In this document: positions 3,684-62,547 of the stretch, piece by piece
Position numbering within the stretch: position 1 is the stretch's first letter
Layout: every line of letters begins with the position of its first letter
DNA from: Alphaproteobacteria bacterium
Lineage (GTDB): Bacteria; Pseudomonadota; Alphaproteobacteria; Sphingomonadales; Sphingomonadaceae
Reading direction: 5' to 3'
DNA: 64,000 nucleotides
Assembly: GCA_019239415.1 (NCBI GenBank)
Contig: JAFAZW010000006.1
Coordinates: 1,959-65,958 of the forward strand
Translations under genes and position numbers: made by a program
Notes under the pieces: generated by a model
Databases searched by the model: none
What the model was told of the DNA's origin: nothing
The model's input: the letters and a program-made list of their open reading frames with translations, nothing else

Positions 3684-4273
3684 TCAGGCTCGGGCTCACC
3701 GGCTCCATCGGCATGGGAAAGTCGACCGTGGCCCAGATGTTCGCCGACGAAGGGGTGCCCGTCTTCGACGCCGACGCCGAGGTGCATCGGCTGCAGGGGC
3801 CCGCCGGCGCGCTGGTCGAGATGATTGAGATGCATTTCCCGGGCACGACGGGGCCGGAAGGGGTGGATCGCGGCGCGCTTGCCGAGCGGGTGCTGGGGGA
3901 GCCGGAGAAACTGCGCAGCCTCGAGATGCTGGTCCATCCGGCGGTCGCGCGGGAGCGGGAGCGCTTTCTCGCCGAACATGGGCACGTACCCCTCGTCCTG
4001 CTCGACATCCCGTTGTTGTTCGAAGCGGGCGGCGCGGCTGCCGTCGACAAGATCGCCGTCGTCTCCGCGCCGGAGGCTGTGCAGAGGGAGCGGGTGCTGG
4101 CGCGGCCCGGGATGACGGCCGACAAGCTCGAGCGTATCCTCGAGCGCCAGCTGCCGGATGCGAAGAAGAGGGCACGGGCCGATTTCGTCATCCCGACCGG
4201 CGGCAGCGTAGAGGAAACGCGACAAGCGGTTCGCCGCATCGTCGCTTGCCTGACGGATGCGCTGGATTCATAG
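3680..4273 (+). CDS. coaE: dephospho-CoA kinase
   Basis: ATG 3680 overlaps the aroE stop. The P-loop GLTGSIGMGKST is present and the length is ~197 aa. Confidence 0.9.
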   Translation: MIRLGLTGSIGMGKSTVAQMFADEGVPVFDADAEVHRLQGPAGALVEMIEMHFPGTTGPEGVDRGALAERVLGEPEKLRSLEMLVHPAVARERERFLAEHGHVPLVLLDIPLLFEAGGAAAVDKIAVVSAPEAVQRERVLARPGMTADKLERILERQLPDAKKRARADFVIPTGGSVEETRQAVRRIVACLTDALDS

Positions 4274-25171: not shown

Positions 25172-25308
25172 TTTCGTCTCCTTGTGCGCAACGAAGCGCG
25201 ACGGTTTTGAACAGCCACGGCAGCCCTTGTGGCCGGGCCGTTCGGTCTCTTCCAAAGGTGGAAAGAAGCGGCGCCTATAGAGGGGAGAGGCCGCAGAGGC
25301 AAGTGCCC

Positions 25309-25388
25309 GTCATCCCGGCGCAAGCCGGGATCTCCGTGAGACCCGACGTGACCTTTCTCCACGAGATCCCGGCTTGCGCCGGGATGAC
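25309..25388. repeat. family-A nested-hairpin inverted-repeat element, copy A1 (80 bp)
   Basis: The arms are GTCATCCCGGCGCAAGCCGGGATCTC (25309..25334) and GAGATCCCGGCTTGCGCCGGGATGAC (25363..25388). Each arm is itself a hairpin. Related copies lie at 51755 and 62336. Confidence 0.85.
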
Positions 25389-25395
25389 GGCTACC

Positions 25396-32511: not shown

Positions 32512-32632
32512 CCCCTCCCGGGAAGGGAGGGGCCGGGGGTGGGTCCGCCGAAGGCGGGCAAAACACCGGGTCAGCAGAAGGCCTCGCTACGCTCGCCTAC
32601 CCACCCCTGACCCCTCCCTGCCAGGGAGGGGG
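32512..32632. repeat. family-C inverted-repeat element, copy C1 (121 bp)
   Basis: The left terminal inverted repeat (TIR) is CCCCTCCCGGGAAGGGAGGGGCCGGGGGTGGGT (32512..32544). Its inverted partner is ACCCACCCCTGACCCCTCCCTGCCAGGGAGGGGG (32599..32632). The element fills the ribH / transporter convergent spacer. Confidence 0.85.
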
Positions 32633-32633
32633 A

Positions 32634-40517: not shown

Positions 40518-40609
40518 CCCCTCCCTGGAAGGGAGGGGTCGGGGGTGGGTAGCCCGAAGGGCTCGCTTCGCTCGCGACCCACCCCTCGCCCCTCCCTTCC
40601 AGGGAGGGG
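40518..40609. repeat. family-C inverted-repeat element, copy C2 (92 bp)
   Basis: The left terminal inverted repeat is CCCCTCCCTGGAAGGGAGGGGTCGGGGGTGGGT (40518..40550). Its inverted partner is ACCCACCCCTCGCCCCTCCCTTCCAGGGAGGGG (40577..40609). Confidence 0.85.
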
Positions 40610-40614
40610 AGTTG

Positions 40615-41070
40615 TCACAGCATGCCCAGCTCCAGCCTCGCCTCGTCGCTCATCTTGGCGGGGTCCCAGGGCGGGTCCCAGACGAGCTCGACCTCGGCGT
40701 CGCCGATGCCGGGGACCGAGCCGACGCGCAGCTCGACCTCGCCGGGCATCGATTCGGCGACGGGGCAGTGCGGCGTGGTCAGCGTCATCTTGATCTTCGC
40801 GTGGCGCTCGGGCGTGATGGCGACATCGTAGATGAGGCCGAGATCGTAGATGTTGACCGGGATCTCCGGATCGTAAATGTCCTTCAGCGCCTCGATCACC
40901 GCCTCGTAAAGGTCGCCGCCGGGCGCCTCGGCCCCGCTTTCGGGCGGCGTCGCCTTGAGGAAACCTTCGAGATAGTCGCGCTTGCGCTCGAACACGTCCG
41001 AGACGCGCGCCTTGGGGGGCGGCGCGACGCCGTCGACCTCTTCGATCTCGATCCTGCGTTCCTCGTTCAC
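40615..41070 (-). CDS. sufT: SUF system Fe-S assembly protein SufT (DUF59/MIP18 family)
   Basis: IYDPEIPVNIYDLGLIY ... TTPHCP motif. The GTG start overlaps the sufS stop. Confidence 0.85.
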   Translation of the reverse strand: MNEERRIEIEEVDGVAPPPKARVSDVFERKRDYLEGFLKATPPESGAEAPGGDLYEAVIEALKDIYDPEIPVNIYDLGLIYDVAITPERHAKIKMTLTTPHCPVAESMPGEVELRVGSVPGIGDAEVELVWDPPWDPAKMSDEARLELGML

Positions 41071-42344
41071 CCGAAGATCCTCCGAACCCGATCCAGCCCC
41101 GCGACGAGCGCGTCGATGTCGCGCGGACCGTTATAGACGCCGAAGCTGGCGCGGGCGGTCGCGTCGACGCCCAATCGCGCCATCAGCGGCTGCGCGCAAT
41201 GATGGCCGGCGCGGATGGCGACGCGGCTCTCGTCCAATATGGTGCCGACGTCGTGCGGATGCACCCCCTCGACGGCGAAGCTGACGATGCCGGCGCTGTC
41301 CTCGGGGCCGAACAGGCGGACGCTGTTGAGGCCGCGCAGCGCATCCCGCGCCTGCCCCACCAGCGCATCCTCGTGGGCCGCGATCGCCTCGAGGCCGATC
41401 CCTTGCACATAGTCAATGGCGGCGGCGAGGCCGAGAACGCCGACGACGTGCGGCGTGCCGGCCTCGAAGCGCGCCGGCGGCGCGGCGTAGGTCGTCCTTT
41501 CGAAGGTGACCCTGTCGATCATCGCGCCGCCGCCCTGCACCGGCGGCATGGCCGCGAGCAGGTCGCCGCGGCCCCACAGCACGCCGATGCCGGTCGGGCC
41601 GTACAGCTTGTGGGCGGAGAAGACGTAGAAGTCGCAGCCGAGCGCCGCGACGTCGACCGGCATGCGCGGCACCGCCTGGCACCCGTCGAGGAGAAGGAGC
41701 GCGCCGACCTTGTGCGCGATCGCGGCGGCGCGCCGGGCGTCGAGGACCGAGCCGAGCACGTTCGAGACGTGGGCGAGGGCGACGAGCTTGTGCCGCTCCG
41801 TGAGCATCGCTTCGGCCGCCTCGAGGTCGATGCGGCCGTCCTGCGTCAGCGGCGCCACGTCGATGACGGCGCCCGTGCGCTCGGCGACGAGCTGCCAGGG
41901 CACGATGTTGGAATGATGCTCGAGGACCGAGAGAAGGATGCGGTCGCCGGGCTTCAGGAAAGTCCCGCCCCAGCTCTGCGCGACGAGGTTGATCCCTTCC
42001 GTCGCGCCGCGGACGAAGACGATCTCCTCCGGCGCCGGTGCGCCGAGAAAGGCCGCTACCTTGCGCCGCGCGGCTTCGAAGGCGAGCGTCATCTCCGCCG
42101 AGCGCTGGTACACGCCGCGGTGGACGGTGGCGTAGGTCTCGGCATAACCGGCGGTGATGGCGTCGATCACGGGCCGCGGCTTCTGGGCGGTGGCGGCGGT
42201 GTCGAGATAGGCCCAGCCGTCGGGGATGGCGGGGAAGTCGGCGAGGAGGTCGAGGGGGGCGACGTCGATCCCTCTCCCTTTGCGGGAGAGGGTATTCTTC
42301 GCGTCAGCGAAGGGGGGGTGAGGGGACGAGATCGCAGAATCCAT
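41067..42344 (-). CDS. sufS: cysteine desulfurase SufS
   Basis: YLDTAATAQKP, the PLP-Lys context SAHKLYGPTGIG, and RAGHHCAQP are present. The only plausible start is ATG 42344, which lies inside repeat C4 and gives a ~25-aa N-terminal extension. Confidence 0.9.
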   Translation of the reverse strand: MDSAISSPHPPFADAKNTLSRKGRGIDVAPLDLLADFPAIPDGWAYLDTAATAQKPRPVIDAITAGYAETYATVHRGVYQRSAEMTLAFEAARRKVAAFLGAPAPEEIVFVRGATEGINLVAQSWGGTFLKPGDRILLSVLEHHSNIVPWQLVAERTGAVIDVAPLTQDGRIDLEAAEAMLTERHKLVALAHVSNVLGSVLDARRAAAIAHKVGALLLLDGCQAVPRMPVDVAALGCDFYVFSAHKLYGPTGIGVLWGRGDLLAAMPPVQGGGAMIDRVTFERTTYAAPPARFEAGTPHVVGVLGLAAAIDYVQGIGLEAIAAHEDALVGQARDALRGLNSVRLFGPEDSAGIVSFAVEGVHPHDVGTILDESRVAIRAGHHCAQPLMARLGVDATARASFGVYNGPRDIDALVAGLDRVRRIFG

Positions 42345-42404
42345 TGCCCTCACCCTCCCACCGCTTCGCGGCGGGCCCCTCCCTCTCTCGCAAGGGGAGA
42401 GGGG
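42270..42404. repeat. family-C-related inverted-repeat element, copy C4 (135 bp), overlapping the sufD 3' and sufS 5' coding ends
   Basis: The left arm is CCCTCTCCCTTTGCGGGAGAGGG...GGGGGGGTGAGGGG. The right arm is CCCTCACCCTCCCACC...CCCCTCCCTCTCTCGCAAGGGGAGAGGGG. It is an imperfect inverted repeat with hairpin termini. Confidence 0.7.
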
Positions 42405-43486
42405 TTCAGGAACCAGTCCTCCGCATCCGCCTCGAAGGCTTCCCGCACCGCCTCCTCGCCGATCCGCGCGAGCGCGTCGGCGACGAAGGCGCGGGTGAGG
42501 AGGGCCTTGGCCTCCGCCTCCGGCACGCCGCGCGAGCGCAGGTAGAAGAGCGCGTCGCGGTCGAGTTCGCCGACCGTGGCGCCGTGGGCGCATTTGACGT
42601 CGTCGGCGAAGATCTCGAGCTCGGGCTTGGCGTTGATCGTGGCGCCGCGGTCGAGGAGCAGGCCCTTGAGCGACTGGGCGGCGTCGGTCTTCTGGGCGGC
42701 GCGGGCCACTTCGACGCGGGCGGCGACCGAGCAGGCGGCGCGATCGCTTGCCACCGAGCGCCACACCTGGCGGCTCATGCCCGAAGGCAGATCGTGCGCG
42801 ACGACGAGGTTCGCGTCGTGGCGCTGGCGGGCCCGGGCGAGGAGGGCGCCGCCGGCCTCGGCGTAGGCGCCCTCGCCGGCAAGCCGGATCGTCGCGTCGA
42901 GCCGCGTGTCGGCGCCGCCGCCGGCCAGAGCGGTCGCGACGAGGCTCGCGCCTTCGCCGACCGTGGCGCGATCGGTCAGGCTGACGAAGCCGGCGGCGGC
43001 GAGCACGCGCCGGGCGAGCATCAGCCGCGCGCCGCGGAACAGGATTATGCCGCTCAAGCGGTTCGCCCAGCCGTCGCCCACGAAGGTCTCGACGACCGAT
43101 GCCTGCGCGTCCTCGTCGAGGACGATCTCGGCGGCGAGATGGTCGGCGCCGCCGCTGGCGACGTGGACGATCTGCACGAGGCCTTGCGGGGCATGGTCGC
43201 GGCCGAGGCGGAGGCGCCAGCCTTCGCGCCCGGCGAGGCGGCCGAGGGCGTGGCCGCCCGGATCGACGCCGGCAGGGCCGACCGCGACGACGCCCGGGTC
43301 GCTCCGCTCGGCGACGAAGCGGCCGTCCACGAACAGCAGCCGCGGGCCGGGCAGCGCGCAATCGATCCACGGCAAGGCTTCGGGGATCGTTCCCAGGCCT
43401 TGGCGGGCGGCGATCTCGGGCAGTGCCGAGACGTCGCTCCACCGCCAGGCCTCGTCGCGATTCGAGGGGAGAAGGAGCGCCGTCAC
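42350..43486 (-). CDS. sufD: Fe-S cluster assembly protein SufD
   Basis: 378 aa with a GTG start. The C-terminal block KPELEIFADDVKCAHGATVGELD is typical of SufD. Confidence 0.9.
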   Translation of the reverse strand: MTALLLPSNRDEAWRWSDVSALPEIAARQGLGTIPEALPWIDCALPGPRLLFVDGRFVAERSDPGVVAVGPAGVDPGGHALGRLAGREGWRLRLGRDHAPQGLVQIVHVASGGADHLAAEIVLDEDAQASVVETFVGDGWANRLSGIILFRGARLMLARRVLAAAGFVSLTDRATVGEGASLVATALAGGGADTRLDATIRLAGEGAYAEAGGALLARARQRHDANLVVAHDLPSGMSRQVWRSVASDRAACSVAARVEVARAAQKTDAAQSLKGLLLDRGATINAKPELEIFADDVKCAHGATVGELDRDALFYLRSRGVPEAEAKALLTRAFVADALARIGEEAVREAFEADAEDWFLNPSPLAREGGARREAVGG

Positions 43487-43611: not shown

Positions 43612-43774
43612 CGCCCTCGCTCCTCCCCGGAACGGGGAGGGGGACCGCGACGCGGAGCGGCGCGGTGGAGCGGGCTCGGACTCCGATGCGGCGGAGAGGC
43701 CGGCCCCCGCCACCAGCCCCCGCCTTCGGCTACGTCCGGTTCCCCTCCCCGTGCCGGGGAGGAGCAAGGGGGCG
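43612..43774. repeat. inverted-repeat element C5 (163 bp) in the sufC-sufD spacer
   Basis: ~36-bp terminal inverted repeats. The left one is CGCCCTCGCTCCTCCCCGGAACGGGGAGGGGGACCG. The reverse complement of the right one is CGCCCCCTTGCTCCTCCCCGGCACGGGGAGGGGAACCG. Confidence 0.75.
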
Positions 43775-43781
43775 GTGCCGG

Positions 43782-44607
<826 letters not shown>

Positions 44608-44621
<14 letters not shown>

Positions 44622-45108: not shown

Positions 45109-46573
<1,465 letters not shown>

Positions 46574-62332: not shown

Positions 62333-62335
62333 GCC

Positions 62336-62416
62336 GTCATCCCGGCGGAAGCCGGGATCTCCTGGAGACCGGCCGCGGCCTTTCCGGATGGAGATCCCGG
62401 CGTTCGCCGGGATGAC
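62336..62416. repeat. family-A nested-hairpin inverted-repeat element, copy A3 (81 bp)
   Basis: The arms are GTCATCCCGGCGGAAGCCGGGATCTC (62336..62361) and GAGATCCCGGCGTTCGCCGGGATGAC (62391..62416). It begins 3 nt after the thrS stop. Confidence 0.85.
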
Positions 62417-62547
62417 GGGGTGCTCCTCCCGCAACAGCCTGACGGAAAACCGCCGCGGCCGCCGCCGCCGTCTTTCATTCGGGCCGCCGACTCACTAGGT
62501 AGAGGGTCGCAAAGTCACGTTCAGGAGATCGAGCTATACGTCCGCCC

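Follow-up and report, generated by a model that had tools for sequence, protein, structure and literature searches.

A palindromic repeat across the sufD-sufS junction of Sphingomonas-like bacteria

The sufD-sufS junction and its palindrome

We examined the junction between sufD and sufS in a 64-kb stretch of contig JAFAZW010000006.1 (hereafter the window, meaning the whole 64,000 nucleotides analysed), the host of which is, judged by its sequence, a Sphingomonas- or Allosphingosinicella-like bacterium. The junction is occupied by a nested palindrome of 134 nt (42270-42404) whose arms are read as part of both genes. The product of sufD carries the SUFBD_core domain (PF01458, 1.2e-54) and is similar to the solved SufD structures 1VH4, 2ZU0 and 5AWF (about 2e-29), the alignment to 1VH4 stopping at query residue 353. 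SufS exhibits the aminotransferase class V fold (PF00266, 2e-141), its closest solved structures in the PDB are SufS/CsdB proteins (1e-119 to 1e-123), and its gene lies in a suf operon context, with sufB, sufC, sufD, a PF01883 gene and a PF01521 gene as neighbours.

The C-terminus of SufD reads ...EADAEDWFLN-PSPLAREGGARREAVGG, and the last 18 codons of the gene (42404-42353, NPSPLAREGGARREAVGG), together with the stop TGA (42352-42350), are inside the right arm of the palindrome; for the 18 codons, this had been claimed in a reading of the same DNA made without database searches (the sequence-only reading). From the ATG at 42344, SufS begins MDSAISSPHPPFADAKNTLSRKGRG-IDVAPLDLLADFP, of which residues 8-25 (PHPPFADAKNTLSRKGRG) are encoded by the left arm. 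The alignment showed 35 residues ahead of the DFP motif, compared to 10 in E. coli and 14 in element-free relatives, which confirms the spacing given in the sequence-only reading (35 against about 10 in E. coli); its count of 5 nt (GGGCA) between the sufD stop and the sufS ATG (42344-42342) was also correct. Both genes stay open through the arms, an in-frame insertion without stop codons of the type of the Rickettsia palindromic elements (RPEs).

The outer hairpins of the palindrome (42270-42292 and 42381-42403) are 91% complementary, and the inner stem, 42306-42324 paired with 42347-42365, is 84% complementary with 22 nt between its strands. Folded as RNA, the palindrome reaches -89 kcal/mol compared to -63 ± 4 kcal/mol for shuffled sequences (z = -6.1; 0 of 200 shuffles as good), and it has in these arms and this hairpin the anatomy of a dispersed repeat. 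A scan of 39.5-48.5 kb against Rfam at a permissive E-value gave no known RNA family, only sub-threshold eukaryotic miRNA-hairpin noise. The promoter and terminator scan found no promoter. Its sole terminator-like site is antisense to suf, on the plus strand, and on that ground the element was rejected as an intrinsic terminator separating sufD from sufS. This plus-strand site consists of the outer hairpin at 42270-42292 followed by TATTCTTC, and its terminator-like score may be due to chance (1 site compared to 0.4 expected).

On an independent metagenome contig, L081, a SufS product with exactly the window sequence is called. L081 is 99.76% identical to the window over 14.5 kb and has exactly the same junction, so the junction is not an assembly error. 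An assembly or frameshift artefact in the right arm was likewise rejected, L081 being identical there and 23 relatives having the same frame of the SufD tail. The sufD of L081 differs from that of the window by two substitutions, and the contig is uninformative on the evolution of the element; an exact look-up of the window SufD returned no record.

Table 1 Genes and parts of the palindrome at the sufD-sufS junction, and the DUF559 gene between sufB and sufC. Positions are those of the window.
Feature	Position	Strand	Details
sufD	43486..42350	minus	378 amino acids, GTG start as listed; open reading frame list, PF01458, 1VH4
sufS	42344..41067	minus	425 amino acids from ATG 42344; type II cysteine desulfurase
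Right arm (A-arm)	42347..42404	minus	arm shared by more than 100 unrelated metagenome loci among the matches listed
Right-arm hairpin		minus, 5' to 3'	CCCCTCTCCCC-TTGCG-AGAGAGGG, then AGGGGCCC
Right-arm small hairpin			GCCGC-GAA-GCGGT; after AGGGGCCC, before the G-box
G-box	42359-42347	minus	GGGAGGGTGAGGG; contains Shine-Dalgarno-like GGGAGG and the sufD stop
Alternative GTG	42351..42353	minus	part of the G-box; in the sufS frame; overlaps the sufD stop as GTGA
Centre (loop)	42325..42346	minus	CAATGGATTCTGCGATCTCGTC; sufS ATG 42344-42342 and codons 1-7 (MDSAISS)
Left arm	42270..42324	minus	degenerate inverted copy of the A-arm
Left-arm layout			C-box CCCCTCACCCCCCC, small hairpin TTCGC-TGAC-GCGAA, GAATA, hairpin CCCTCTCCC-GCAAA-GGGAGAGGG
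DUF559 open reading frame	45108-44608	minus	166 amino acids; PF04480, 2e-28; Pfam domain covers residues 34-136 only
DUF559-flanking arms	~45065-45030 and 44672-44640	minus	CCCCTCCCCTTCAGGGGAGGGG-TT-TGGGGTGGGG ... CCCCACCCC-AA-CCCCTCCCCTGAAGGGGAGGGG

The repeat family and the junction in relatives

BLAST of the unit of about 135 nt against the window found no second full copy, so that the family had to be shown by external data. The right-arm 15-mer GAGAGGGAGGGGCCC, searched against metagenome contigs, was present at no fewer than 120 loci in unrelated contexts, many of which match the window arm without a difference for some 40 nt. The view of the arms as a repeat element was therefore upheld by copies outside the window and not by a full copy inside it. 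The family arm is about 57 nt long and consists of a hairpin CCCCTCTCCC-loop-GGGAGAGGG, then AGGGGCCC, a hypervariable small hairpin and GGGAGGGTGAGGG, which gives the signature CCCCTCTCCC..GGGAGAGGGAGGGGCCC..GGGAGGGTGAGGG. Among the matches listed, the full architecture was found in 113 arms; 50 arms were solo, 54 had an inverted partner and 5 were at contig ends, and the centres of the doublets measured 16-149 nt with no conserved sequence. None of the 120 arm loci listed is a sufD-sufS junction. The window itself contains a solo arm of the family at about 32580-32633. [quoted passage not shown]

The small hairpin of the family (7-23 nt) exhibited 89 distinct sequences in the 113 arms (loci L086-L205) between two almost invariant blocks. 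Its pairing is nevertheless kept, with at least 4 pairs in 67 of the 89 distinct variants compared to a shuffled mean of 6.8, and a stem of nearly always 4-6 bp; covariation within a mobile repeat is seldom seen this clearly.

The junction was then compared in relatives, the frequencies being taken from the 120 closest SufS and the 120 closest SufD. About one third of each have the straddling arrangement of the window. The SufS heads were short and native (MDxxxSTRPLD) in 45 relatives and encoded by a straddling arm in 40, and most of the other 35 were repeat-derived, about 14 of them with a whole element in frame; the SufD tails were short and native in 41, encoded by a straddling arm in 41, otherwise repeat-derived in 24 and miscellaneous in 14. 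Five states of the junction were found: an empty site (L211, L001, L003, L006), a whole element placed after the sufD stop and before the ATG (L002, L004, L005), a whole element within the sufD tail directly before the ATG (L084, L206, L207), a whole element in frame within the sufS head after codon 8 (L210), and the straddling form of the window (L082, L083, L085, L208, L209). Because of these five states and their frequencies, we read the junction as an insertion hot spot, at which the state of the window is common and not unique. These states, at least five in number, offer a natural experiment for testing the tolerance of N- and C-terminal junk and coupling enforced by a hairpin.

The element is thus polymorphic in presence and absence, with four empty sites and elements placed elsewhere in other relatives. 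The empty site of L211, whose SufS is 84% identical to that of the window, reads ..GGGTGGCTGCGGTAATGGACATGGCCGTCTCCACCCGCCCGCTCGAC (junction ..TGGCTGCGGTAATGGACATGGCCGTCTCCACCCGCCCGCTCGAC) with a TAATG overlap, a SufD ending in ..EGWLR and a SufS starting with MDMAVSTRPLD, and in L001, L003 and L006 the stop and the start overlap as ATGA. In the element-free L211, L001 and L003, SufD stops at the Trp plus 1-6 residues and SufS begins M-D-M-A-V-S-T-R-P-L-D. The alignment of SufD and SufS with their relatives, which the sequence-only reading had proposed as a check, thus showed that both extensions are lineage-specific. The proximity of stop and start, 5 nt in the window and TGATG, ATGA or TAATG in relatives, is that of a translationally coupled pair.

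No clear direct repeat was visible as a target-site duplication at the arm borders when L211 was compared with L085, L208 and the window. The comparison of the empty site (L211:2456-2545) with window 42404-42415 and 42258-42269 showed that the host flanks resemble the boxes of the element, GAAGGGTGGCTG in the region of the Trp codon being like the G-box GGGAGGGTGAGGG and TCTCCACCCGCCCGCT (codons STRP) like the C-box CCTCACCCGCCC. This resemblance could reflect a target preference, microhomology at insertion, or chance in a genome of 70% G+C.

Start site, origin and role of the element

Translation from ATG 42344 is very likely the way in which sufS is started, and this codon is the best-supported of the predicted starts. 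The only canonical in-frame starts near the 5' end of sufS are this ATG and GTG 42353, and the next one, GTG 42170, comes 58 codons into the gene, by which point the conserved motifs DFP and YLDTAATAQKP have been passed. GTG 42353, three codons upstream of the ATG and within the element, was rejected as the true start because relatives have it in another frame than sufS. Each of the six straddling centres contains the central ATG in the sufS frame, and the distances from it to the C-box (CCTCAC) are 15, 15, 21, 21, 21 and 27 nt by hand count, all of them multiples of three. L209 is among them; its upstream ATGs keep the frame even though the gene caller picked an internal Met there. The codon just past the element is ATC, ATC, GTT, GTT, ATA and GTT at the same six junctions, and so gives no conserved start. 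It is the frame of the ATG, the multiples of three, the absence of a conserved start past the element and the loss of frame of GTG 42353 in relatives that together make ATG 42344 the best candidate. The sequence-only reading had called it the only usable start, which holds with respect to the downstream GTG 42170 and fails in the letter, GTG 42353 being in frame too. For annotation, callers place the SufS start inconsistently at the element, and SufD ends vary by frame.

The same reading had pointed to a Shine-Dalgarno-like G-rich sequence supplied by the repeat arm, and indeed GGUGGGAGGGUGAGGGCAA is directly ahead of the AUG, with GGGAGG of the right-arm G-box 9 nt upstream of it. This box is paired with the C-box downstream of the AUG in a very stable predicted mRNA hairpin, and the computed energy needed to open positions -16 to +5 is 23-32 kcal/mol at straddling loci compared to 9-17 kcal/mol at empty sites. 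Termination of sufD takes place 0-5 nt from the sufS AUG in both SufD frames. Ribosomes on sufD would unwind the right arm while finishing sufD, and sufS would be initiated by termination-reinitiation coupled to sufD. Since the Shine-Dalgarno sequence is buried in the hairpin, and since sufD ribosomes would unwind the right arm and terminate next to the AUG, coupling is the plausible route to SufS, whose translation is probably dependent on that of sufD. Overlapping stop and start codons (ATGA, TGATG) couple translation in operons. TGATG, ATGA or TAATG is retained in the ancestral junction and in most of the derived ones, the window having its stop 5 nt before the ATG. Unlike in ordinary overlap coupling, the site here is in the loop of a repeat-arm hairpin of about -89 kcal/mol, and because of this hairpin coupling would be obligatory.

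We consider it likely, from the comparison of centres, that the central ATG is the ancestral sufS start and was not supplied by the element. The centre of L082, L083 and L085 reads GGGTGAGGG-CCTGATGGAC, with the TGATG overlap and the 'MD' of short-head genes, and relatives with the element show TGATGGAC or ATGA in the centre, usually with 'MD' (ATGA in L208, ATGATG in L209). Several relatives resume with the canonical residues ..(I/D)STRPLD after the left arm, and in L208 the DNA past the arm, ATCCACCCGCCCGCTCGA, is that of the empty site base for base. Counted by hand from the conserved Trp codon to the PLD codons, the bases outside the arms number 30-45 nt in straddling loci and 38 nt in empty ones, so no host sequence need have been lost. 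In the short centres of 37 non-suf doublets, ATGGA[CT] was found in none and TGATG or ATGA in only two; non-suf centres often extend the palindrome, which suf centres never do. An origin from a whole upstream and a whole downstream element combined was rejected, as the arms on the junction side would then have the wrong orientation.

The claim that the repeat supplies the sufS start codon is consequently not borne out, given the TGATG or ATGA with 'MD' kept in relatives and the 0 of 37 non-suf centres with the motif. The related claim, that the first 25 SufS residues come from the centre and left arm, was right as to position and as to residues 8-25 or so, which are arm-encoded; the same two lines of evidence speak against an element origin of the ATG and the first seven or so codons, which are more likely an ancestral 5' end enclosed by the arms than element sequence.

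The reading that we favour, with moderate confidence, is that the repeat straddles the junction as tolerated selfish DNA which encloses the ancestral ATG and leaves both frames open. The two arms would have come to flank the old overlap of sufD stop and sufS start in a Sphingomonas-like lineage. As a result sufD would read 18 codons into the right arm and stop at the TGA of the G-box, and sufS would start at its likely ancestral ATG in the loop of the palindrome and run through 18 extra left-arm codons before the conserved ..PLDxxADFP... The extra peptides would be disordered appendages, tolerated and not selected, with purifying selection only keeping both frames open and the stop adjacent to the start.

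In SufD, two reading frames of the right arm are in use, with 23 relatives (the window included) ending with ..GEGGARREAVGG (NPSPxxGEGGARREAVGG, with the TGA in the G-box) and 16 with ..GEREGPAAAGGGRVRA (..TPLPAGEREGPAAAGGGRVRA) at TGATG or ATGA. Some SufD tails switch frame inside the small hairpin, and the frame of the window is due to a small hairpin 2 nt shorter than that of L083. The SufS head has 24-29 residues before PLD, with a variable sequence and two left-arm subtypes, and AlphaFold (AF2) gave a pLDDT (predicted local distance difference test) score below 50 for residues 1-27, which are predicted to be unstructured. The pairwise identity of the A-arm is 89.5% over six genomes, with stems invariant at all codon positions; at the third codon positions of the flanking 100 codons identity is 65% for sufD and 72% for sufS, and in the centre it is 49%. 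We read the conservation of the arms as acting at the DNA or RNA level and as common to the whole family, not as acting on the peptides. Because it is at the nucleotide level and family-wide, tolerated selfish DNA appears the simplest reading, and the arm-encoded peptides would be neutral. The exaptation into two coding sequences and an initiation region that the sequence-only reading had seen does not agree with the two SufD frames, with the variable head predicted to be disordered or with arms conserved at all codon positions.

If tolerated selfish DNA is the correct reading, a high-copy palindromic repeat can occupy a translationally coupled junction, where an essential operon is most constrained, with neither gene broken, and two Fe-S assembly proteins carry lineage-specific, apparently meaningless tails across a large group of soil Sphingomonadaceae.

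Several points weigh against this reading. Both arms were together in eight of eight loci or contig pairs and no single-arm intermediate was seen, and doublets with centres of about 17-23 nt are also a standard form of the family elsewhere; both observations fit the insertion of one piece, the centre of which gained a stop and a start later. A mechanism by which two arms would be set around host DNA in a single step is not known to us. There is also an ascertainment bias, since the gene calls through which some of the loci were retrieved had already taken the central ATG as the start. The quick neighbour-joining tree of 120 SufS cores, on which junction types are interleaved, is too crude a measure of patchiness for repeated gain to be told apart from loss or recombination, and the AF2 alignment is shallow (55 close sequences). 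The conservation of the arms could also reflect a selected RNA or DNA function rather than gene conversion among copies or recent insertion. Finally, the organism is known from metagenomes alone, so that both the start site used and the coupling are deduced from its sequence; a search of sequencing runs found DNA metagenomes only (root, rock and soil) and no RNA runs.

Less satisfactory, and in our judgement unlikely, is an insertion in one piece that supplied the C-terminus of SufD, the ribosome-binding site, the sufS start and the first 25 residues, and that was exapted and is now required. Beyond the constant pairing of the arms at the junction and the short-centre doublets that are normal for the family, this would account for the lack of a canonical start downstream of the element, for the GGGAGG placed 9 nt ahead of the ATG and for the persistence of the arrangement across relatives whose SufS differ by up to about 20%. 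It is at odds with a centre whose TGATG or ATGA and 'MD' match the empty junction and are absent from the 37 non-suf centres, with non-arm sequence that sums to about the length of the empty site, and with a close relative, L211, that does without the element. Nor does it agree with a SufD tail read in two frames, a SufS head variable in length and sequence and predicted to be disordered, and conservation that follows nucleotides and not codons.

The palindrome might instead be kept because it functions in the suf mRNA or DNA as a cis-regulatory structure, which would set the SufD:SufS stoichiometry by obligatory coupling or serve as a site of double-strand RNase processing or of stability, a domestication at the RNA level with the peptides as by-products. 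The higher identity of the arms (89.5%) than of the synonymous sites of the flanking genes (65-72%), the very stable structure that sequesters the Shine-Dalgarno sequence and the AUG, the 0-5 nt between stop and start in both SufD frames and the attraction of such elements to this junction and to the whole suf operon in many lineages all speak for it. We nevertheless hold it to be quite improbable, since the arms are equally conserved in unrelated contexts, where family-wide homogenisation or recent spread suffices, since close relatives have empty sites or differently placed elements, and since no Rfam family was matched. Least credible is a start of SufS downstream of the element, with ATC 42269 or another non-canonical codon in use, with the left arm as an untranslated leader and the 25-residue head as an annotation artefact: this ATC directly follows AAAGGGAGAGGG, and gene callers disagree on the start in relatives (P0010 and P0030 compared to P0002), but the position is not conserved as a start, the G-run abuts the ATC with no spacer, the central ATG of all six centres keeps its frame despite indels of 6 and 12 nt, and the upstream ATGs of L209 are in frame despite the internal Met called there.

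The RPEs, reportedly described by Ogata et al. in 2000, are likewise short palindromic dispersed repeats in essential housekeeping genes, where they keep the frame intact and encode a lineage-specific peptide compatible with function. The present element differs in family, sequence and taxon, being Sphingomonadaceae-like, and whereas RPEs are within one open reading frame and encode a family-conserved peptide, here a stop/start junction is spanned and each arm extends a different protein. With its SufD arm in two frames and its variable SufS head, it is not an RPE and is RPE-like in action only. In-frame fusions of RPEs and other intragenic MITEs with host genes have been reviewed (PMC10969869), and our case belongs to this known class of in-frame MITE/RPE-type insertions. 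New in our case are a doublet that spans a stop/start overlap and lengthens two different essential proteins by its arms, a SufD arm whose reading frame is one of two according to the lineage, and the association of the family with DUF559.

REPs and REPINs go together with a RAYT transposase. The family resembles them in its hairpin units, found single and as inverted doublets, in the inverted units around one enzyme gene, in its very high copy number and in the compensatory variation of its stems. In contrast to them, the flanked gene codes for a DUF559 protein (PF04480, PD-(D/E)XK, Vsr-like) and not for a Y1 transposase of the IS200/IS605 type, and the arms begin with CCCC.. and have neither the GTAG nor the CGTC end tag by which REP super-families are defined (PMC3733652), so that the family does not belong to the REP/REPIN-RAYT systems. 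Its units are also longer than those of REPs (about 57 nt, with two hairpins and a G-box), and many copies are in coding sequence. Elements of the Correia, ERIC and BOX type change the expression of neighbouring genes, for the most part from positions between genes and by way of promoters, RNase III sites or mRNA stability, whereas the element described here is within two coding sequences and at the point of coupling. As with Neisseria Correia, ERIC and BOX elements, the palindromic repeat would be transcribed together with host genes and fold into a long RNA hairpin, and it can be a source of expression signals, here a Shine-Dalgarno sequence (PMC10969869).

DUF559 association and other repeats of the suf operon

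Of the 120 loci listed, 9 had a DUF559 homologue as the immediate neighbour of the arm, and in L106, L145 and L163 it was between two inverted arms. In the window, a DUF559 open reading frame is exactly between sufB and sufC, inside a pair of related inverted arms; as called, it passes through both arms, overlaps the sufB stop (ATGA) and extends into the sufC start. A longer form with an enzyme gene between the same arms thus exists at the three loci named, and with related arms in the window. The short junction elements of L206, L207 and L005 have the same ends as the DUF559 copy, and their centres likewise run from CCTGTC.. to ..ACAAG, which suggests that they are internal-deletion derivatives of it. 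Since DUF559 adjoins or is between the same arms at several loci, the short copies look like non-autonomous derivatives of a DUF559-carrying element, and the DUF559-flanking form is probably the autonomous form of the family.

The association may reflect a role of DUF559 in the mobility of the arms; among the articles on DUF559 listed from the open literature, none had a title or abstract with dispersed repeats as its subject. It is conceivable, though doubtful, that the arms are the ends of an undescribed class of mobile element driven by DUF559 (a Vsr-like PD-(D/E)XK endonuclease) and functionally analogous to REP/RAYT, whose doublets install themselves around short host DNA, and that the sufD-sufS copy was retained with a hairpin making SufS synthesis strictly dependent on SufD translation. 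If this were true, the ancestral stop/start overlap would for that reason have become the loop of the palindrome. Should DUF559 mobilise the arms, this would assign a role to a domain that is very common and of unknown function.

Other palindromes are present in the operon and in the rest of the window. A palindrome of 100 nt that belongs to a different family (44334-44434, CCCCGGACTTGATCCGGGG.., arms 83% complementary) is inserted in frame within sufC (43782-44621, minus strand), where it adds about 32 residues (..FAVPRHAGLDPASTLSSGAEEGRWTPDQVRGDEEW..) and splits the ABC_tran Pfam match; SufC has 247 residues in L084, L085, L207, L209 and L211, and 278-282 residues in the window, L082, L206 and L208. 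Palindromes of the same C-rich/G-rich hairpin style as the junction element were found in the gap between sufC and sufD (43614-43770, arms of 34 nt, 91% complementary) and between the PF01883 and the PF01521 (sufA-like) genes (40518-40609, arms of 36 nt, 89% complementary). Including the junction element and the DUF559 copy, the window has five copies of this style, of which four are within the 8-kb suf operon and the fifth is the solo arm mentioned above. A third palindromic family, unrelated to the suf elements, was found at 25307-25390, at 62334-62418 and possibly at 4096-4207 (CCGTCATCCCGGCG.AAGCCGGGATCTCC.., arms 91-93% complementary). In the 3' region of sufB, 36 of the 38 differences between L081 and the window are within 140 nt at the end of the contig (L081:35-174, window 45363-45502), and this clustering points to a tract of recombination or to an assembly that is chimeric with another strain.

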